This document shows positions 7,280-64,000 of a stretch of DNA of 64,000 nucleotides, one piece after another; positions within the stretch are counted from its first letter, which is position 1; every line of letters begins with the position of its first letter. Both the position numbers and the translations under genes were made by a program. The stretch is from NCBI GenBank assembly GCA_963768055.1, contig CAVYGN010000001.1, positions 1,624,145-1,688,144 on the forward strand, written 5' to 3'. The notes below the pieces were generated by a model. The model did not search any database. It had not been told where the DNA came from and saw only the letters and a list, made by a program, of their open reading frames with translations. The DNA is from an uncultured Spirochaetota bacterium. GTDB lineage: Bacteria > Spirochaetota > Brevinematia > Brevinematales > JAOACQ01.

Positions 7280-8207
7280 AATTCACTCTCTCTTTTTCAA
7301 TGACCAGAGGCCTGTTTTTAACCTGCGTATAGATAGCACCGATATATTCGCCTATAACGCCGATAAAAAAAAGCTGAACGGAAGAGAAGAAGAACAGGCC
7401 TATAACCAGGGGAGCTATTCCCACATTGAAATTCTGCCAGTAAATAAGCTTGTAGACGAAATAACCTATCGCCACCAGGAGGCTGATTATAGCCACGCCG
7501 AAGCCGATAAAACTCGCAAGCCTCAGGGGTATTTTGCTGTGATTGACAAAGCCCAGCATGGCCATATCGTAAAGGGTGTAAAAGTTATTCTTGGTCTTTC
7601 CGCCGTATCTTTTCGGCTGGACATAAGGGATTTCCGCGCGGTTGAAACCGAGCTCCGATACAAGCCCCCTGAAGTACGGATAGGGTTCGTTCAAATTCCT
7701 GAGGACCTCTATAAATTTCCTGTCGTAAAGGCCGAACCCAGTAAAATTGCTTATATGTTCGGATTCCGAAAGCTTTTTGATCAGGGCATAGTACATTTTC
7801 CTTACGGCGAATATCAGCGGGTTTTCCCTGCTCTTCTTCTTTACCCCTATGACAATGCTAAAGCCCTCTTCCCATTTTTTAATAAAATCGGGTATCATCG
7901 ACGGGGGGTCCTGGAGGTCGCAGACAAGCGATATGACCGCGTCGCCCCCCGCCTGGAGCATGCCATGGAACGGGGACCGGATGTGACCGAAATTGCGGAT
8001 ATTGACGATAATTTTTATATTTTTATCGGCGCCGGCAATTTTTTTCAGGATTATGACCGTATTATCCGTCGAACAGTTATCGATAAATATATGCTCGTAG
8101 CGGTATTGAGGAAGTTTATCGAAGACCGACTTCACCAGCTTGTACACTTCCTCGACATTGTCCTGTTCATTGTAGCAGGCCGTAAGGACGCTTATAAGTT
8201 TTTTCAT
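7272..8207 (-). CDS. GT2 polyprenyl-phosphate glycosyltransferase (GtrB/ArnC-like)
   Basis: CYNEQDN, IDNCSTD, RNFG and DLQDPP motifs, two C-terminal TM helices, IGEYIGAIY..VKNRP. Confidence 0.9.
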   Translation of the reverse strand: MKKLISVLTACYNEQDNVEEVYKLVKSVFDKLPQYRYEHIFIDNCSTDNTVIILKKIAGADKNIKIIVNIRNFGHIRSPFHGMLQAGGDAVISLVCDLQDPPSMIPDFIKKWEEGFSIVIGVKKKSRENPLIFAVRKMYYALIKKLSESEHISNFTGFGLYDRKFIEVLRNLNEPYPYFRGLVSELGFNRAEIPYVQPKRYGGKTKNNFYTLYDMAMLGFVNHSKIPLRLASFIGFGVAIISLLVAIGYFVYKLIYWQNFNVGIAPLVIGLFFFSSVQLFFIGVIGEYIGAIYTQVKNRPLVIEKERVNFD

Positions 8208-8326
8208 ACTATTTTCTTACCTCTGCAAGGACCGCACACGCGAAATCCCTCGATAATATTCTAAAGAAAGACGGATTTTTGAGCAAATTGTCCGGCTGAA
8301 CGAAAAAAATCCGCGGATGGCACAGA

Positions 8327-8345
8327 TTCCCCCCTTTGGGGGGAA
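8327..8345. repeat. Perfect GC hairpin TTCCCCCC-TTT-GGGGGGAA at the GC-to-AT transition
   Basis: 8-bp inverted repeat read directly; function unknown. Confidence 0.5.
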
Positions 8346-8401
8346 GCAGATGAACATAATTAATGTTAAGTTCAATCATTATTTAAAACACAAAAAAGAT
8401 T

Positions 8402-8430
8402 TTGACAATTTAATGTTAAATAATTAGAAT
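8402..8430 (+). promoter_or_regulatory. Sigma70-type promoter TTGACA-17-TAGAAT
   Basis: Near-consensus boxes with 17-bp spacing; implies translation starts downstream (ATG 8474) rather than at 8429. Confidence 0.55.
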
Positions 8431-54590: not shown

Positions 54591-56642
54591 TTATTTACAC
54601 ATTGATATCAATTCTTTTAACTTTGATTCTATAAGTTTCCAGTCCTCATTATTGCTTTTATATGAAAACTCCATTATCTTTTTTTTAAAATCAAGTAATG
54701 AAATTCTTAATTTATATTCCTTATGAATATCAATTAATACTTGTTTTCCATCACATTTAATTATCCATTTAGATTCCCAATCATCTTTAATAGAAGTTAT
54801 ACGTTTTTGGATTTCAGATAATACAACATCTTTTCTAAAATCTGTTTTTATTCTAATAGAAGATGCTGCGATTTTATCTAGTATAGAAAATAAATTGTTT
54901 ACAGTTTCTTCCGGATTATCAGTTAATATTTCTGTTATTTTTATATAAATTTCATCAGTTAAATATTTAAGTACAACATCTTTTGCTCCAATTTTGTTTA
55001 TTTGCATAAATGCTATATTTTTTATTATTCCCAACATTGACCCTCTTGTCAATCCATCCTGATTTGCTCCGTTTTCTTTGATAACATCAAATATTGTATC
55101 AGAATTAAGTAAATAATTTTCAAGGCAATATCTATCCCATTGAAGTAAGATAACATTTTTAGTTGATTTCAAACTAGTTGGAAGATTATCAAGATCAAAC
55201 AAGAATAACTGATATGAGTCAAGTGTACCTTTTTTATCTTCATCTTGAAGAGTTTTAATATTTTTTTCAATTTCTTTTCTTCCACCTAAATACTTTGCCG
55301 CATAACCAGGCATAATGGTAGTAATAGCAAAATCTAAAAGTTCTGTGTCATGAGGACCTTCTAAGTAAATAATGCCTTTAGTCGATAATAAATCTGTACT
55401 ACTTGAGCCTAATTTTTGTAGAACACTAAATACTTCAGCTTTATCCTTTTTATAAATTACCGAAATATCATTTCCGGATATTAAATGATAGATTTTGCAA
55501 TCATTTCTCTCAAAAGCAGTTGCAAACATTTCTGGGCTATGAGTACTAAGAATAATTTGTCTATTTTTTACATTACAAACAGTATCAATGAGATAATTTA
55601 TAATCTTCTTTTGGACTGCTGGATTTAAATGTAGTTCGGGTTCATCAAAAAGAATTATTCCATTTTCATTAGTAGTAAGATCCATAAATAGTATAGTTAA
55701 TAATAAATTTTTTTCGCCAGAACTCATACTATCTATATCGTAATGGCTTCCTTTTATAGTATCATTTATCCATATTGAAATATTTCCATTTGGATTTATT
55801 CCAACTCCACCAAGATTTTTTCCAGGAAGTAATGAGTCAAATATTAATTCAAATGTTTCTTCTATCATTTTCTTAGATTCATTACTTGAAAAATACATGT
55901 TAATAATAAATTGTTTTATTAATAGGTATTTTGATTGTGGGTTTGCAATATACGATTGAAGCTGCTGATTCGCATTTTGAAAACCGATTTGTAACGGTTG
56001 ATCACCCAAAGGCAAAGATCTATCTGCTGGAAAATAATTAAAATAAGAATATGAATACCCACTTGTCTCACAAAGTATTGCAAGAAACTCTTGATCTAAT
56101 AAAGAAGAACCAGATATAAGTAGATTATCTATAGTTAAACTTGCAATAGCCTTCTTTGTAGTCAATAGAGTTTTCAAATAAGAATCGATTTCCAAACGAC
56201 CTAATTCCATCATCTGTTTTCCAGGTTCACTACTGAGATATTGAGCTTCAGAAAATGATTCACGAAAAACAGGAAATCTATTTGTATTTTGCAAATGCTT
56301 AATAATCAGATTATTAAAGAAAGATTTTTTTACAGTTTCTATTTCTGATTCCTCAATAGAATATTCAATTGATATCTCAAGCTTTTTGGTTCGATCATTT
56401 AACAAAGTGTTTGTAATAACACCTTGTTGATTTGGACTAATAGCTTTAATACTAGTTAAAACCATATTTGTTTCACCTTGTATGTTTGGAAATAAAAAAG
56501 CCTTATTTAAACGAATAGCCTCGAAAATGGTTGATTTACCAACAGCATTTGGACCTACGATTAAAATTCCTTGAGCATCCGTGTTAAATTCAATATCTTT
56601 TATACCTTTAAGATTAATTATTCTAATTTTGGTAATTTTCAT
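54591..56642 (-). CDS. ABC-type ATPase fused to a TOPRIM/DUF4435-like nuclease (OLD-family / fused PARIS-like), probable anti-phage defence
   Basis: GPNAVGKST, MSSGEK, LFDEPELHLNP, STHSP; then YLEGPHD, FDLD, RYCLENYLL, DGK. Confidence 0.8.
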   Translation of the reverse strand: MKITKIRIINLKGIKDIEFNTDAQGILIVGPNAVGKSTIFEAIRLNKAFLFPNIQGETNMVLTSIKAISPNQQGVITNTLLNDRTKKLEISIEYSIEESEIETVKKSFFNNLIIKHLQNTNRFPVFRESFSEAQYLSSEPGKQMMELGRLEIDSYLKTLLTTKKAIASLTIDNLLISGSSLLDQEFLAILCETSGYSYSYFNYFPADRSLPLGDQPLQIGFQNANQQLQSYIANPQSKYLLIKQFIINMYFSSNESKKMIEETFELIFDSLLPGKNLGGVGINPNGNISIWINDTIKGSHYDIDSMSSGEKNLLLTILFMDLTTNENGIILFDEPELHLNPAVQKKIINYLIDTVCNVKNRQIILSTHSPEMFATAFERNDCKIYHLISGNDISVIYKKDKAEVFSVLQKLGSSSTDLLSTKGIIYLEGPHDTELLDFAITTIMPGYAAKYLGGRKEIEKNIKTLQDEDKKGTLDSYQLFLFDLDNLPTSLKSTKNVILLQWDRYCLENYLLNSDTIFDVIKENGANQDGLTRGSMLGIIKNIAFMQINKIGAKDVVLKYLTDEIYIKITEILTDNPEETVNNLFSILDKIAASSIRIKTDFRKDVVLSEIQKRITSIKDDWESKWIIKCDGKQVLIDIHKEYKLRISLLDFKKKIMEFSYKSNNEDWKLIESKLKELISMCK

Positions 56643-56820: not shown

Positions 56821-57522
56821 TTATTGCAATAATATTTCAGATTGGCTATCATCTTTTATAATATATTTATTAACTAATTCAATAATGGATTTGCATTCTA
56901 AAAAAGGATATATTTTACGAATAGCTTCATCTAAAACTGTTAAATTATAATCTCCACTCCAGCGTTCTGATTCAGAGATTGTAATATTATTCCCATGCTT
57001 TAAATATTTTTCAAGTAAATCCAGACCTAATTCTTTTTGTCCTTTTTCATCTCTAGCATGCCTTGCTTTTGCTACTGTAGACCATGGATCTCTGCCAGCT
57101 TTTTCACCTTTTCCATGTATTAATGATAAGATTCTAGCAACTTTATGAGCCTCATTTATTGAGTATATTGTACAAGGAACTTTTAAATTATCCCTTTTCC
57201 ATTCATCTGAAATGGTTTTAATCTTTATTGAGATTTCTCTTGGGATTTCGATTTCAGTTAAAAATCCATGTAAGATTTTTAATGATGCTACTCTACGATT
57301 TCCCTCTTTTACAAGATGAATTCCTTTGTCAAACATAATAATGATATTTTCTGTAGGGAAATAACCATTATCTAATAGGCTTTCTAGCAATCCCCAAAAA
57401 TAATCAGGACTTATAGCAATCATAGTATTAACAGCATCTATATCACTTTTTTTATGGATTGTTCTGAAATTATCAAGATCTAATGATAATTTATCAACAG
57501 AGATTTCCCCTAATGTTGGCAT
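56821..57522 (-). CDS. ParB/Srx-like domain protein, probably C-terminally truncated
   Basis: LDLDNFR, LLESLLDNGY, VKEGNRRVASLK, PW motif; ends abruptly in AT-rich sequence. Confidence 0.65.
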   Translation of the reverse strand: MPTLGEISVDKLSLDLDNFRTIHKKSDIDAVNTMIAISPDYFWGLLESLLDNGYFPTENIIIMFDKGIHLVKEGNRRVASLKILHGFLTEIEIPREISIKIKTISDEWKRDNLKVPCTIYSINEAHKVARILSLIHGKGEKAGRDPWSTVAKARHARDEKGQKELGLDLLEKYLKHGNNITISESERWSGDYNLTVLDEAIRKIYPFLECKSIIELVNKYIIKDDSQSEILLQ

Positions 57523-58362: not shown

Positions 58363-58437
58363 AAATAGAAAATTGCTATTGACAATATTTTCCTCCACAT
58401 TATACTTTTACCAAAATTCTTAAAGGAGGAATTGAAA

Positions 58438-58665
58438 ATGGCAGACTTTAAAGTCGGTGATGTTGTTAGATTAAAAAGTGGTGGACCTGATATGACCATC
58501 ATTGAAATTTATGGAGATTCAAAAAACACCCCAAATGCTTATGTAGCCAGATTAAAACATAGGATAGAAGGAGATTTGGTTTGTCGTTGGTTTGATTCAG
58601 GAAAGCAAACTGTTGATTTCTTTGGGCCAAACGAAGTGGTACTTATTCCTTCGGGGCAACAGTAA
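58438..58665 (+). CDS. YodC/DUF2158 family small protein
   Basis: FKVGDVVRLKSGGPDMTI...CRWF; AAGGAGG RBS. Confidence 0.88.
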   Translation: MADFKVGDVVRLKSGGPDMTIIEIYGDSKNTPNAYVARLKHRIEGDLVCRWFDSGKQTVDFFGPNEVVLIPSGQQ

Positions 58666-58825
58666 GAGGGCTAAATTCCATCATCGTAGCATAAATGATC
58701 TTCTGATTGTTGTATATTGCCCCACCAAGAACAGATGAGGGTTCCTCATCTTTTACTTTTTCAACAATCAAATCAGGACTTCCTGATTTAAGTTTTACCT
58801 TATCCCCTTTTTTGTAGTTTTTCAT
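58643..58825 (-). CDS. Second YodC/DUF2158-like ORF, convergent, C-terminus atypical
   Basis: YKKGDKVKLKSGSPDLIV; lacks the CxWF motif. Confidence 0.55.
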   Translation of the reverse strand: MKNYKKGDKVKLKSGSPDLIVEKVKDEEPSSVLGGAIYNNQKIIYATMMEFSPLTVAPKE

Positions 58826-59083: not shown

Positions 59084-60421
59084 ATGGGTGAAAGCCAAAA
59101 TCAGGCATTACGAGTCGATTTTGATAAGAGTCTAAGGCTTGAATTTCATGGTTCAACCATTACTTCTGATGCCGGACTACTTGCTTATCGTGAACTTGAT
59201 GACGCATTGGGATTGACAGACATTGCGGCAAAGTGCCTGAAAGATATCAGATTTGGAAAGAACAAACAGCATAGTATTGCAGCACAATTGCGGCAATCCG
59301 TATTCAGCAGGCTTGCGGGATATGAAGACACAAATGATGCGGAACGTCTTTCCGTTGATCCTGCCATGAGGCAGGTTGTCGGGGGAAGAGCTCTTATTCA
59401 TACGGCTGCGTCAACGAGCCAGATGGGAAGGTTTGAAACTGAAGTTCTAACTCTTCCGGATAACATCAAAGCCCTTATGAATCTTTCCGGGCAATGGATT
59501 GACAGGTTAAGGGATCAGGTTCCCATGAGAAATCTTGTTCTCGATATGGACAGCTCTGTGAGTGAAACATATGGAAGACAGGATGGGACTGCATATAATG
59601 GACACTTTGGATGTACTTGTTACCACCCCCTTTTTTGCTTCAACCAGTTTGGCGATGTCGAGTTTGCCCTTCTTCGGGAAGGTAATGTACACAGCGCTGA
59701 TAACTGGAAAAAAGTATTAGATCCAATTGTTGCCCGTTACCGTAATAGAAAATTTCCTCATTACTTCAGAGGGGATGCCGGCTTTGCCAAACCCGAGATT
59801 TACGAGTACCTGGAATCAGAACATTTCAAGTATGCCATTCGCTTACCAGCCAATGATATTTTATACAGTGAAATCGGACATCTCCTTACAAGGCCGGTAG
59901 GACGGCCGTCATATACACCTGTTGTCTGGTACCATGAATTCCTGTATAAAGCGGCATCCTGGGCTCGTGATCGCAGGATAATAGCAAAGGTGGAATGGCA
60001 CCAGGGAGAACTCTTTCCCAGGGTCGGTTTTATCGTTACAAATCTAAGGGCTAAAAAGAAGAAAGTAGTCCATTTTTACAATATGAGGGGAACAGCGGAA
60101 CAATGCATTAAAGAGGGTAAGAATGCTGTAAAGTGGACAAGGCTCTCCTGTCATGATTTTATCGATAATCATGTCCGGCTCCAGTTATTTGTCCTTGCCT
60201 ACAATCTTGGAAACTTCTTCCGGCATTCAGCTTTACCCAGAGTAATGAAACACTGGACCATGACGACACTCAGGGAAAAGCTAATAAAAATCGGTGCAAA
60301 GGTTGTCAGCCATGCTCGCTATGTGGTTTTCCAGATGGCGGAAGTCGCCGTCCCGAAAGGGCTGTTTGCCGTTATCCTTGATAGATTACATAGATTAAGG
60401 CTACTGTTTGGCGTTGGTTAA
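59084..60421 (+). CDS. IS1380 DDE transposase
   Basis: [42 protein letters not shown]. Confidence 0.95.
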
Positions 60422-60981: not shown

Positions 60982-61090
60982 TGCGTAATCCGGGGCACCA
61001 GACGAAACCTTCCATGTAATCCGTTTCAAATCTGCCACCTAATCCTGTTGAACCCTGCCGGGTATTCCGGGTGAAATTTCCCCTGGATGA
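60982..61090. mobile_element. Solo IS21-like terminal remnant
   Basis: TGCGTAATCCGGGGC start and repeated TAATCC...CTGCC / TATTCCGG units, GC-rich within AT-rich DNA; no transposase. Confidence 0.45.
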
Positions 61091-61253
61091 TTTGATTAGA
61101 TATGATGGTTGGGGATTTTAGCTTGTAATTTAAGGGGATTCTATTTTGGAAACACCCAGGGGAATTCGCCATTCATTTAATTTTCTTTAATACGTTTTTC
61201 AAATTCTATCATAAATTTGACTATTGAATGACAGAATTTATTAATTAATTAAA

Positions 61254-61979
61254 TTATTCACAAATAATATGTTGAGTTGGAATAGTCTGATATTCAATAT
61301 CATAAATCCAAAAGTTTCCAACATTATTAAAGGGAAACCAACAATCACTCTTATTTGGTACCCTAAATTTTTCTAACCTGTATGTATCTTTATTCTGATT
61401 TGAGTATTCAACCTGACAAAATACTATCCCTATTCCTTTAGCTAATACTACTAATCTTTTTGTGTAACAGTAACCAGTATAATTTAAAGGAAACTCGAAG
61501 GAAGATTCAACGGCAATACAGTTAGATATTTTCCTCTTAATCTTATTTGGAATTTTATCATACGGAACACTATTAAGCCTTTTGGTTTTTATTTTTGTCT
61601 TAAATCCATCACTTTCTTGATTTTCAATCCATTCAGAACTTTCATGAAGGATGTATTTACCTGGTGAGATTATGACATGGGTAAATGAATTTATAAACGC
61701 GTACCTATTAACATAAATAATTTCAGAGTTGTTAGTTAGTAATAGATCCATAAAACCCACTGCATTATCAAGACTGCTTTTGGTTAGAATTAAACGCATT
61801 GAATGAATAAATCCAGTCGACTCCTGATGAGATACTTTTTCTATTACCTGATAACATTCTTTATGATGTCCACCTCCTTTTATACGATACTTTGAAGAAA
61901 AGTAAATGTTAAGATAATATCCGATAAACGCTAGAACAAGAGCTATTATTATTGAAATTAAAGTCATTGATTGATCCAT
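61254..61979 (-). CDS. Membrane-anchored hypothetical protein, last gene of the rSAM operon
   Basis: N-terminal TM helix, beta-rich body with AKGIGIV; starts 35 bp after the rSAM stop. Confidence 0.7.
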   Translation of the reverse strand: MDQSMTLISIIIALVLAFIGYYLNIYFSSKYRIKGGGHHKECYQVIEKVSHQESTGFIHSMRLILTKSSLDNAVGFMDLLLTNNSEIIYVNRYAFINSFTHVIISPGKYILHESSEWIENQESDGFKTKIKTKRLNSVPYDKIPNKIKRKISNCIAVESSFEFPLNYTGYCYTKRLVVLAKGIGIVFCQVEYSNQNKDTYRLEKFRVPNKSDCWFPFNNVGNFWIYDIEYQTIPTQHIICE

Positions 61980-62014
61980 ATTTGAAATCCTTAAGTAAAC
62001 GGAATCTTATTTTA

Positions 62015-63337
62015 TTAATTTATTTGTTTGCTCCAGCACATAACATCCTTTCTACGAATTCCATCATTGGTAAGATTGTAATTGCATCCACCACCACATT
62101 TATTTATAAACTTACATCCAATACAATCAAGTGGTGATTTTGATATTATTTCCTTACCAAATTCTGCTGCTTTTTGCCATATTTTTTCAAGAGAGTCTTT
62201 TGGATATTTGCCAAGATGATAATTTCTCATATGTGGACATGGTGTAACAGTCCCATCCGCACAAATATTAAGCACATCATTTCCAGCATTACAAGGACCA
62301 AGAACAGAATAGCTTTCATTAACTAAGTGCGGGTAAAAACATAAAGGTTCAAACCCGATAACAGTTTCACTATGTTTTTTTTCAAGCAAAACTAATTTTC
62401 TGGAAACTTTTTTTAACTCATTTATACTCAAGGAAAGCTTTTCTCCATTTGGTCCGGAAGGCATATAACGAAAAACCACAAATCTATCAGCTCCATTTTT
62501 AAATGCTAAATTCGCAGTTTTTTCTATCAGGTTCCAGTTTATAGATGATACTGTCATTGCGACTCTAGTTTCGATACCAATTTTGGAAAATATTTTAAGC
62601 GCATTAATAGCCTTATTATAAACTCCATTACCACGAATATAATCATGAACAGTAGGCGGACCATCTAAACTTATCTGTGCAATACCCAAACCTGCATTTT
62701 TTAGTTTTATCGCATTTTTATTGGTTATAAAAACACCACTAGTACTAATAGCAGTTTTTATTTTTGTTGAAGCACAACGACTCAAATATTCCGGAAGATT
62801 TTTGTCAAGGGTCGGTTCGCCTCCTCCAAAACCAACAGTCATAACTCCAAGTTTTGTTAGTCCATCTATAAGTTGAAATACCCACTGACTCCTATCTTCA
62901 AAATTTTTCTCTTTCTTAATCTTTGCCCTTGTATAGCAGTGAATACATTGCAAGATACATTTATCTGTAATTTCAATAAAAGCGCTAAGTGGCGCTGAAA
63001 GCTTTGGGGTAAATTTTAAATTTACTTTTGTGAAATTATATCTATCGAATCTGGGGAAGGAATTATTATCAACAACCTTTAGTATTCCTATTTGAGATAA
63101 TTCATTAATAAAGCTTTCGATCATATTTTTATCGATTCTCGGGTATTTTATTAGCACCTTTTCGGTAAGATTTCTAACAGATATTGGAATTTTGCAATTC
63201 TCAAGAATTGTTGTTCCAACTCTATTAAGTTTAAAAAATTGGGGAACATCAGGTCGCTCAAGTTCAAAAGGTACTAAAATAATTGAGCCGAAAGTTTCAT
63301 TCCTTAAATTAATTCCTTTATGTAAAAATACCTTCAT
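62015..63337 (-). CDS. Radical SAM/SPASM peptide maturase with N-terminal PqqD-like RRE
   Basis: RRE-like FFKLNRVGTTILE..FINELSQIGIL; CILQCIHC; GGGEP; SLDG; SPASM CNAG..ADGTVTPC..CIGCKFINKCGGGC..CW. Confidence 0.92.
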   Translation of the reverse strand: MKVFLHKGINLRNETFGSIILVPFELERPDVPQFFKLNRVGTTILENCKIPISVRNLTEKVLIKYPRIDKNMIESFINELSQIGILKVVDNNSFPRFDRYNFTKVNLKFTPKLSAPLSAFIEITDKCILQCIHCYTRAKIKKEKNFEDRSQWVFQLIDGLTKLGVMTVGFGGGEPTLDKNLPEYLSRCASTKIKTAISTSGVFITNKNAIKLKNAGLGIAQISLDGPPTVHDYIRGNGVYNKAINALKIFSKIGIETRVAMTVSSINWNLIEKTANLAFKNGADRFVVFRYMPSGPNGEKLSLSINELKKVSRKLVLLEKKHSETVIGFEPLCFYPHLVNESYSVLGPCNAGNDVLNICADGTVTPCPHMRNYHLGKYPKDSLEKIWQKAAEFGKEIISKSPLDCIGCKFINKCGGGCNYNLTNDGIRRKDVMCWSKQIN

Positions 63338-63423
63338 GGGTTTCTTCTCAGTAAAAACTTAACAATAGCATCGATGAAAGCTCCTGACTCACAATGGCTT
63401 GGATTAACCTCCGCAACAATCAT
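63334..63423 (-). CDS. Possible 29-aa translationally coupled micro-ORF
   Basis: MIVAEVNPSHCESGAFIDAIVKFLLRRNP with ATGA overlaps at both ends. Confidence 0.35.
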   Translation of the reverse strand: MIVAEVNPSHCESGAFIDAIVKFLLRRNP

Positions 63424-63638
63424 AATAGCTCCCAAGGTTTCTTTACACCATAAGCTTTACATGGTCCACAAGACCAATCAGGGCGCTGTGAACACGAAAT
63501 ATGAAGTGGAACTATTTCAGGTATTTCCTCCAATAATAAATCACTTCTAACGAGATGCTCATCCGCATCTTTTTGCAATTTGCTCTCATTTACAATGTCT
63601 TTAGGTAATTCACCTTGATATAAGTCTGTTTTTTCCAT
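63420..63638 (-). CDS. Putative RiPP precursor peptide (72 aa)
   Basis: GGAGG RBS; acidic leader (..DLLLEEIPEIVPL) and core HISCSQRPDWSCGPCKAYGVKKPWELL; lies between two SPASM genes. Confidence 0.75.
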   Translation of the reverse strand: MEKTDLYQGELPKDIVNESKLQKDADEHLVRSDLLLEEIPEIVPLHISCSQRPDWSCGPCKAYGVKKPWELL

Positions 63639-63652
63639 AAGTACCTCCAAAT

Positions 63653-64000
63653 TTAATTTGCCATTTTATTATTTTTAGCCCATTTGCCACTATAGGGGTC
63701 ATACAAGCATCTATTGTTTTTTTTATAAATGTTATTTATATTTTCTTCATAAGCCAATGGTCTGCAATCTGTACAAATATACTTAAATTCACATTCTTTA
63801 CATATTTGCACATCATCCAATGTCAGTGTCCAAGGCTGCGAAATTGCAACATCAATAATATCTTCAAAATTATCAGTAATTATATCTCCCAATATCAAGT
63901 CTCGAGCATGAGGGCATGGGACAACTTTACCATCGAAACGTAAAAACAGCATGTTTCCCCAACATGAATTATATCGTTTAGAATATAGGAATGATTGTGG
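63653..64000 (-). CDS. SPASM-domain (radical SAM-type) protein, 3' part only
   Basis: YNSCWGNMLFLRFDGKVVPCP..CKECEFKYICTDCR..RCLYDPYSGKW; frame open to the window edge. Confidence 0.88.
   Translation of the reverse strand, partial: PQSFLYSKRYNSCWGNMLFLRFDGKVVPCPHARDLILGDIITDNFEDIIDVAISQPWTLTLDDVQICKECEFKYICTDCRPLAYEENINNIYKKNNRCLYDPYSGKWAKNNKMAN

Follow-up and report, generated by a model that had tools for sequence, protein, structure and literature searches.

Radical S-adenosylmethionine (SAM) enzymes with SPASM domains are a main source of new peptide chemistry, and their reactions are not predictable from sequence. Several described systems for peptides that are synthesized ribosomally and modified post-translationally (RiPPs) bear on the cassette considered here, which lies in a 64,000-nt stretch of DNA from an uncultured Spirochaetota bacterium of the Brevinematales (GenBank assembly GCA_963768055.1); this whole stretch is called the window. 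In the cassette, the gene for a putative precursor peptide is flanked by genes for two radical-SAM/SPASM enzymes, rSAM1 and rSAM2. In the thuricin CD system (TrnA/TrnB, TrnC, TrnD), two radical-SAM/SPASM-type maturases are likewise encoded beside the peptide substrate, and cooperative action of the two is plausible (PMC12093266). Thuricin CD has two precursors, whereas the present locus has one, and no transporter is conserved here.

A second point of comparison is the group of maturases formed by SuiB (streptide), CteB (SCIFF), SkfB and TigE. Their three-part architecture, a RiPP recognition element (RRE) followed by the radical-SAM and SPASM domains, corresponds to that of rSAM2 with its RRE-like N-terminus, and our model of rSAM2 with the peptide likewise places the leader on the RRE-like domain. 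The identities to rSAM2 in fold alignments are only 14–19%, however, one peptide is flanked by two enzymes here, and SuiA, CteA and SkfA have nothing in common with the precursor. PapB, which makes Cys-X3-Asp thioethers, offers a chemical parallel, as the invariant Cys/Asp spacing of the present peptide lies within the PapB range given in PMC9413430. The PapB model NF047865 scores rSAM2 at 68 bits against a cut-off of 340, and the motif occurs once here rather than six times. Like the peptides of the mycofactocin, pyrroloquinoline quinone (PQQ) and GeoRSP systems, the peptide has an invariant core and no export genes accompany it, but the RRE-like domain is fused to the enzyme here and the RRE is a separate protein there. 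Precursors of mycofactocin and PQQ are marked by a C-terminal Val-Tyr or by Glu-x3-Tyr. Neither feature is read in our peptide.

By these comparisons the cassette is a putative member of a well-known kind of radical-SAM/SPASM RiPP system, within which its predicted precursor family is new. The reading that we favor, and hold to be probable, is that of a mobile RiPP-type cassette in which the leader docks on the RRE, both radical-SAM enzymes modify an invariant motif, and an adjoining membrane-protein gene is a passenger. The evidence is set out next.

On the minus strand, the gene order from 5′ to 3′ is rSAM1 (413 residues), the peptide (72 residues), rSAM2 (440 residues) and a membrane-anchored open reading frame (ORF) of 241 residues. 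All four ORFs were read where the first-pass annotation, an earlier reading of the window from its letters, had placed them. That annotation took the first gene for a SPASM protein. The SPASM assignment stands, but the gene does not encode a bare SPASM protein: the host genome holds a complete radical-SAM/SPASM enzyme, and since the window cuts rSAM1 at 64000, the earlier reader had only its SPASM tail.

The order and orientation rSAM1–peptide–rSAM2 recur in two metagenome contigs, L004 and L006, the former being 99.95% identical to L003, a contig of a metagenome-assembled genome. In two further contigs the unit is seen in part: L007 carries the peptide and rSAM2 at its end, and L005 begins with the last residues of a peptide, immediately before rSAM2. 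The expectation that the short ORF would accompany homologous enzyme pairs is thus borne out at L004/L003 and L006, and at L007 the peptide is present with rSAM2. The boundaries are sharp. The window and L004 share a block of nucleotide homology of 2931 nt (85.6%), which begins 32 nt upstream of where rSAM1 starts and breaks off 10 nt beyond the rSAM2 stop; the DNA that flanks the cassette in L004 and in L006 is unlike that of the window, and the two also differ from each other. The longest contig listed for each orthologue has the same value, 8191 or 3821, for all three genes, and the values 6385, 40088, 2184 and 5500 are common to pairs of genes; from these values alone we infer that the genes are co-located. 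The pairwise identities of rSAM1 and rSAM2 over five loci are correlated with r = 0.97 (ten pairs, which are not independent). Judged by the loci compared, the conserved unit is enzyme–peptide–enzyme.

The fourth ORF is a different matter. The earlier annotation had counted this membrane protein as an operon member of the system, a view that its distribution contradicts: no counterpart is found in the remaining 113 nt of L004 or in the 3.6 kb downstream at L006, the host genome has no paralogue, and none of 400 other genomes of the phylum carries it. The absence at L004/L006 and in the phylum genomes rules it out as a core component. Searches of Pfam, NCBIfam and other family collections and of the PDB gave no match. 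A single-sequence AlphaFold2 (AF2) model has a mean predicted local distance difference test score (pLDDT) of 37, with only the helix at residues 3–30 confident. The ORF is, on this evidence, a local addition or passenger, predicted to be a single-pass membrane protein, that is probably co-transcribed with the cassette at this locus.

The peptide family was assembled from three sources. A word-indexed search of 5.8 billion proteins gave four peptides, and a profile search of 1.84 billion representatives gave seven at E ≤ 0.001, the window's own being included in both counts; with the peptides read from L006 and L007 added, there are 12 distinct sequences. Their N-terminal 35–45 residues are barely alignable. 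Invariant in all 12 are M1, P40, I42, L45 and, position 56 excepted, the whole of S48 to C60, so that the family signature reads P-x-I-x-x-L ... SCSQRPDWxCGPC. The tail AYGV(K/R)(K/R)PWEL(L/V/I) is kept in eight of the 12, in one of which W69 is replaced by Cys. For the window's peptide, the acidic leader and basic core described earlier are confirmed by calculation (residues 1–39, isoelectric point 4.4 and charge −6.4; residues 46–72, isoelectric point 8.6 and charge +1.8). The C-x7-C-x2-C pattern with two Trp and one Tyr is likewise there, as C49-x7-C57-x2-C60, W55, W69 and Y63. The stress laid on the aromatic residues holds for W55, which is invariant, and fails for Y63 and W69, which vary.

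Codon comparisons bear on whether the ORF is real. When the final 36 codons are compared in distant pairs (the window or L004 with L006 or L007, and L006 with L007), the proportion of synonymous differences (pS) is 0.80–1.0 and that of nonsynonymous differences (pN) is 0.06–0.13. Synonymous sites are saturated and nonsynonymous change is low, so the protein, rather than the DNA, is under conservation. The same position between two enzyme genes at other loci, together with this strong purifying selection, makes the small ORF more than a chance occurrence. As to its start, an alternative TTG would give 76 residues; homologues begin ME(N/K)T, which favors the 72-residue ATG form. The strong ribosome-binding site claimed for the peptide is there, as GGAGG with a 5-nt spacer.

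No described family claims the peptide. Pfam and NCBIfam return no family at E ≤ 0.01, NCBIfam returns none for three of the peptides at E up to 10, and no PDB chain matches at E up to 10. The models for the SCIFF, mycofactocin, PqqA and subtilosin precursors belong, we presume, to NCBIfam and Pfam, and the earlier judgement that the core lies outside these four families agrees with the empty NCBIfam result at E up to 10. In the literature search no paper was found that joins 'radical SAM', 'RiPP' and 'CGPC', or that contains the peptide's motif strings, supplementary data sets such as the ~15,000-protein compendium of PMC10288494 being outside that search. A search of IMG/VR turned up no relative of the peptide and only distant radical-SAM matches. 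By these searches, P-x-I-x-x-L ... SCSQRPDWxCGPC is the signature of an undescribed family of putative precursors.

Both enzymes have the Radical_SAM and SPASM domains of Pfam (PF04055 at 77 and 72 bits; PF13186 above the gathering score in both). An alignment of 24 rSAM1-family members shows the three SAM-cluster cysteines (CxxxCxxC) and the seven of the SPASM domain to be invariant in all 24; for rSAM2, each of 18 aligned relatives has the corresponding ten. Since the cysteines of the SAM cluster and a seven-Cys SPASM motif are kept in both, both enzymes are probably catalytically competent. At 24% identity to one another they are, as had been proposed, two different maturases in a radical-SAM/SPASM peptide cluster. 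Three further cysteines of rSAM2, C188, C333 and C359, are invariant in the six orthologues that belong to this cassette and are lacking in 12 relatives at a greater distance; their role may be that of a system-specific extra cluster ligand or a redox pair. The use of seven versus eight or more SPASM cysteines to discriminate thioether-forming from C–C-forming enzymes was dropped as too weak a criterion: both enzymes have the canonical seven, with C333 and C359 as additions in the rSAM2 orthologues. Among PDB sequences the best matches are SkfB (53 and 59 bits), SuiB (57 bits, rSAM2) and PqqE. For rSAM2, an AF2 model made with six sequences has a confident RRE-like N-terminal domain and barrel, and its fold matches are, best first, SuiB bound to SuiA, SkfB, TigE and CteB, all of them peptide maturases with an N-terminal RRE.

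Curated models place the enzymes outside the named families. For rSAM2 the highest NCBIfam scores are those of GeoRSP (TIGR04303, 129.9 bits; rSAM1, 64.4; cut-off 400), MftC (112.7; rSAM1, 62.1; equivalog cut-off 265) and PqqE (90.4, with 53.4 for the other enzyme; equivalog cut-off 381). For rSAM1 they are AhbD (94 bits; cut-off 500), StsB (84; 625) and WgkB (75; 650). The models for AlbA, SkfB and StsB, with cut-offs of 850, 300 and 625, give rSAM2 66.7, 81 and 72.2 bits and rSAM1 65.5, 64.9 and 83.8 bits, respectively. Scores are equally low for the SynChlorMet enzymes (ScmE, 104 and 72 bits; ScmF, 82 and 71 bits; cut-off 400 each) and the His-Xaa-Ser enzymes (HxsB, 56 bits against 370; HxsC, 65 bits against 268). 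Judged by these curated models, the cassette is none of the mycofactocin, PQQ, GeoRSP, SynChlorMet, His-Xaa-Ser, subtilosin, SkfB and StsB systems.

The likeness of the first gene to the grasp-with-SPASM maturases, which had been pointed out from its tail, is real as far as the C-terminus goes. The tail (CxxCEFxYxCxDCRP ... CLYDPYxGxW) matches positions 223–338 of the 342 in TIGR04193, about 116 residues, and each of 24 sequences sampled from the wider rSAM1 family also matches this model at E ≤ 1e-10. Membership does not follow: rSAM1 attains 74.5 of the 175 bits required, over its C-terminus only, and has a true radical-SAM core. In the literature search, grasp-with-SPASM and TIGR04193 came up in no more than two papers. 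The ATP-grasp partner TIGR04192 has no match at E ≤ 0.001 in the host genome (94.75% complete), nor any among the ORFs scanned around the cassette. The earlier reader had proposed looking beyond 64000 for an ATP-grasp enzyme, a protease or a transporter; the low-GC tract read past the window end yielded none.

The N-terminal domains of both enzymes are best called RRE-like. The assignment draws on a PqqD match in rSAM2, discussed below, on the precomputed PF05402 matches of the orthologue P0007 and several rSAM1 relatives, on the alignment of the two N-termini with each other (hhalign probability 94%, E = 1e-7), and on the strand–helix N-domain and fold matches of the AF2 model. A model of rSAM2 in complex with the peptide scored 0.73, the best of three controls scoring 0.00. 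In a benchmark this level was attained by 58 of 80 solved complexes and by 2 of 110 mismatched pairs. For the rSAM2–peptide model, contact agreement between runs is at least 44% and the partner pLDDT at least 43. The confident part of the modeled interface joins peptide residues 36–50 to rSAM2 residues 31–41, 61–85, 346–355 and 367–368. The tightest contacts are those of PEIVPL (peptide residues 40–45) with residues 34–41, further contacts being made with the RRE-like helixes at 61–85, and S48–S50 come to lie near residues 346–355 and 367–368 of the SPASM region. The modeled docking of PEIVPL coincides exactly with conservation, P40, I42 and L45 being invariant. We predict from the model that PEIVPL binds the RRE-like domain of rSAM2.

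A simple scheme can be proposed for the working of the cassette. The peptide would have three parts, namely, a variable acidic leader, the conserved recognition stretch K-P-E-I-V-P-L, and the invariant 13-residue SCSQRPDWxCGPC. The recognition stretch would dock as a strand on the winged-helix RRE domain at the N-terminus of rSAM2, and by analogy on that of rSAM1, feeding SCSQRPDWxCGPC into the radical-SAM active sites. The invariant reactive residues of the core are C49, D54, W55, C57 and C60, with the invariant spacings C49-x4-D54 and D54-x2-C57. At least one Cys thioether may form, either Cys-to-Asp (ranthionine-type) or Cys-to-Cα. The most economical candidate bond would join C49, C57 or C60 to D54 in ranthionine fashion; a precedent is PapB, which accepts Cys-Xn-Asp with n = 0–6 (PMC9413430), a tolerance that covers both spacings. 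A second event might take place at W55 or at a remaining Cys. The two enzymes would work one after the other or jointly, in a complex of the TrnC/TrnD type, and the CGPC pair may stay as a redox-active or disulfide element. The modification itself, the residues modified, the bonds formed and the role of the product are all inferred. The earlier suggestion that two different modifications would yield a new doubly modified macrocycle is a conjecture, and a cooperative pair of the TrnC/TrnD kind is just as possible.

Several observations weigh against the proposed RiPP cassette. The PqqD match (PF05402) on rSAM2 residues 31–86 has 17.7 bits, below the gathering score of 23.4. The SPASM region of the rSAM2 AF2 model is of low confidence, the model's mean pLDDT being 59. 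The success of the complex model may be due to likeness with solved RRE–leader complexes (5v1t, 5wgg), and the alignments are shallow and the fold of the peptide uncertain. The curated cut-off of no NCBIfam model is reached by rSAM1, by rSAM2 or by the more distant relatives of either. The peptide tail is different in four of the 12 sequences (P0256–P0259), which are possibly cut at contig ends. The loci compared have no conserved gene for a protease, a transporter or immunity alongside the cassette, an unusual situation if the natural product is exported; the product may therefore use host functions, act inside the cell, or leave by lysis. Finally, the reaction chemistry of uncharacterized radical-SAM enzymes is not reliably predictable from sequence, as stated in PMC10288494.

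Other explanations differ from the favored reading in what the two enzymes do or in what the peptide is for. In one, rSAM1 and rSAM2 form an obligate TrnC/TrnD-like complex that makes one kind of cross-link, with only one radical-SAM activity strictly needed. The tight co-divergence of the pair and its constant flanking of one precursor keep this a possibility to be reckoned with, though not the one we would choose: thuricin CD has two precursors where each locus here has one, the enzymes are only distantly alike, and every cluster Cys is kept in both. The small ORF might also be no substrate at all: it could serve the enzymes as a Cys-rich redox or Fe-S partner, or have no function. Its three invariant cysteines could bind metal, but its conserved place between two RRE-bearing maturases, its division into variable leader, recognition stretch and invariant core, and its modeled docking on the RRE all speak for a substrate. 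A spurious ORF is ruled out by the strong purifying selection, and we give this explanation as a whole almost no credence.

Two further explanations concern the role of the product. It could be an intracellular redox cofactor or mini-module built on W-x-C-G-P-C and not secreted, following the logic of mycofactocin, PQQ or cysteine tryptophylquinone (CTQ). The active-site motif of thioredoxin is WCGPC, which the Trp-x-CGPC of the peptide resembles. The core stays invariant over loci with saturated synonymous sites, genes for an exporter, a protease or immunity are not conserved, and GeoRSP (130 bits), MftC (113) and PqqE (90) are among the best-scoring named models for rSAM2. We nevertheless regard a cofactor as unlikely, in that these scores are far below the cut-offs of 400, 265 and 381, the cassette is not accompanied by a dependent oxidoreductase, and a rare, patchy cassette in mobile, defense-rich DNA is ill-suited to a metabolic cofactor; the CGPC likeness, moreover, is to a motif of five residues and is broken by an additional residue following Trp. 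A bolder version is that the cassette yields an intracellular cross-linked redox peptide, in which SCSQRPDW is rigidified around the W-x-CGPC dithiol, and so amounts to a mobile three-gene redox cofactor or mini-oxidoreductase; this we would call a long shot. The modified peptide might instead act against phages or competitors as part of a conflict or defense module. The neighborhood invites the thought, with a fused AriAB (PARIS) gene ~4.6 kb from the four genes, a truncated PD-Lambda-5_A gene and an IS4-type transposase beside it, and a HEPN protein gene 2 kb downstream at L006. But PADLOC, which returns nothing for the peptide, reports only a generic radical-SAM likeness to viperins (46–65 bits), the IMG/VR search yielded no relative, and location in a variable island says little about function, which leaves a defense role very doubtful.

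Taken as a probable RiPP system, the cassette is an unusually clean test case, with three genes, sharp boundaries and one precursor in 2.9 kb. Its 13-residue invariant target has few reactive residues, i.e., three Cys, one Asp and one Trp, for two distantly related maturases. Whatever bonds form in the peptide would define a new precursor family, and the system offers a way to learn if two maturases that share a single short motif work in sequence or as a complex. The absent export, protease and immunity genes raise the question of how a mobile minimal RiPP unit benefits its host. Interest would rise if the chemistry proved new or if the product turned out to be a redox-active intracellular peptide.

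The cassette is scarce. The counts that follow come from samples of genomes and are to be read as applying to those searched. A pattern scan of one genome per species over 185,579 species found one other carrier (L003), with one of 60 pattern matches encoding a relative; in metagenomes, 87 pattern matches gave four loci. No rSAM2 orthologue was found in 60 relatives of the host (12 of 61 genomes match at E ≤ 1e-20, the best non-self score being 123 bits against 834 for self), or in 60 relatives of the other carrier. No rSAM1 orthologue was found in 400 genomes of the phylum, the best non-self score being 166 bits against 550 for self. Among sequencing runs, none of RNA is listed for the cassette, and three of DNA, all from one study, have small shares (0.12–0.21), on which no claim is based.

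The setting is that of an island, and the AT-rich DNA noted at the outset is confirmed: the GC content of the cassette is 31.8%, against 41.4–41.6% for the host genome, and the cassette lies inside a ~19-kb low-GC tract that extends from ~54000 to about window-equivalent 73000. An imperfect direct repeat brackets all four genes (86% identity over an ungapped 118 nt, 78% over 209 nt), and only two full copies exist in the genome. An Xre-type helix-turn-helix (HTH) gene of 82 residues lies on the same strand, 385 nt upstream of the four genes, and a 15-codon Xre remnant stands in the left repeat copy, ~20 nt past the stop of the 241-residue ORF. This repeat fits acquisition of the cassette by recombination, a candidate mechanism. 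Judging from its distribution and setting, the cassette is a horizontally acquired, rare and mobile element with a patchy occurrence. The features are collected in the table.

Table. Positions of the cassette genes, peptide segments and flanking repeats. Coordinates are those of the window (1624145–1688144 of contig 1, C1, in host genome G000). L002 is the host genome read past the window end; an L002 coordinate is the window coordinate minus 60000.
Feature	Coordinates	Strand	Basis or remark
Enzyme 1 (rSAM1), 413 aa	63653–64894 (L002 3653–4894); in-window 3′ part 63653–64000	−	Genome read past window end
rSAM1 domains: RRE-like N-terminus, radical-SAM core (C106/C110/C113), seven-Cys SPASM (C311, C327, C365, C368, C374, C377, C396)			
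GGAGG ribosome-binding site, 5-nt spacer to peptide ATG (63636–63638)	63644–63648	−	Sequence reading
Precursor peptide gene, 72 aa, stop codon included	63420–63638	−	ORF, conservation, purifying selection
Peptide residues 36–47 (LEEIPEIVPLHI), predicted RRE recognition sequence	63498–63533	−	P40, I42, L45 invariance and complex model
Peptide residues 48–60, SCSQRPDWxCGPC, presumed modification site	63459–63497	−	Invariance in 12/12 peptides
Peptide residues 61–72 (KAYGVKKPWELL), tail kept in 8 peptides, different in 4	63423–63458	−	Alignment
Enzyme 2 (rSAM2), 440 aa	62015–63337	−	Pfam domains, AF2 model, fold matches
rSAM2 domains: RRE-like ~1–90, radical-SAM core (C127/C131/C134), SPASM (C349, C367, C405, C408, C414, C418, C434)			
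241-aa ORF, one N-terminal transmembrane helix, AAGGA ribosome-binding site	61254–61979	−	ORF reading
Left copy of imperfect direct repeat, ~210 nt	61020–61235	not assigned	With 15-codon remnant of Xre-type HTH gene
Right copy of direct repeat, outside window	window-equivalent 65128–65335 (L002 5128–5335)		Contains 3′ end of Xre-type HTH gene

The genes are closely spaced, with 14 nt from the rSAM1 stop to the peptide ATG, 82 nt from the peptide stop to the rSAM2 ATG and 35 nt from the rSAM2 stop to the 241-residue ORF. The 82-nt spacer folds no better than shuffled sequence (z = +1.25), and promoter and terminator scans gave counts not above those from shuffled sequence. Rfam has no family at E ≤ 1 within L002 1–8000, and no tRNA was found near the low-GC island. 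The outer end of the direct repeat, at 61020–61076, is a dispersed repeat of ~57 nt that occurs also at C2:1147004–1147060 and C2:340121–340175, on the other contig, and repeats an AATCCGG...GAAAC(C)TGCC pattern within itself.

Elsewhere in the low-GC tract there are genes of several kinds. At 54591–56642 on the minus strand is the fused AriAB gene of the PARIS anti-phage type; its 683-residue product is a full-length match to PDLC02981 (335 bits) with the Pfam domains AAA_15/AAA_21 and DUF4435. Adjoining it on the same strand, a 233-residue ORF (56821–57522) covers only positions 1–222 of the 491-position PD-Lambda-5_A model (339 bits) and looks like a truncated defense gene. Two convergent, overlapping ORFs of 77 and 60 residues, at 58432–58665 (plus) and 58643–58825 (minus), both match phrog_3261, of which the function is unknown, and are paralogous small proteins. 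The IS4-type transposase (DDE_Tnp_1_4, 437 bits) lies at 59084–60421 on the plus strand; its GC content of ~44% inside a 26–35% GC tract points to a later insertion into the island. Beyond the cassette, the tract encodes an ankyrin-repeat protein with an N-terminal hydrophobic segment (L002 5632–6573, plus; PDC-M72A, 148 bits), a pentapeptide-repeat membrane protein (L002 8825–10183, minus) and a repeat protein that matches EPTP weakly (L002 11103–12389, plus); none of these three (L002 5632–12389) is a protease or a transporter.

At L006, where the cassette is 56% identical to that of the window, the HEPN protein gene (7637–8410, plus) is Cthe_2314-like with a score of 41 bits, and just upstream there is a weak match to an AHJR-like nuclease, which makes this a second conflict-type neighborhood.

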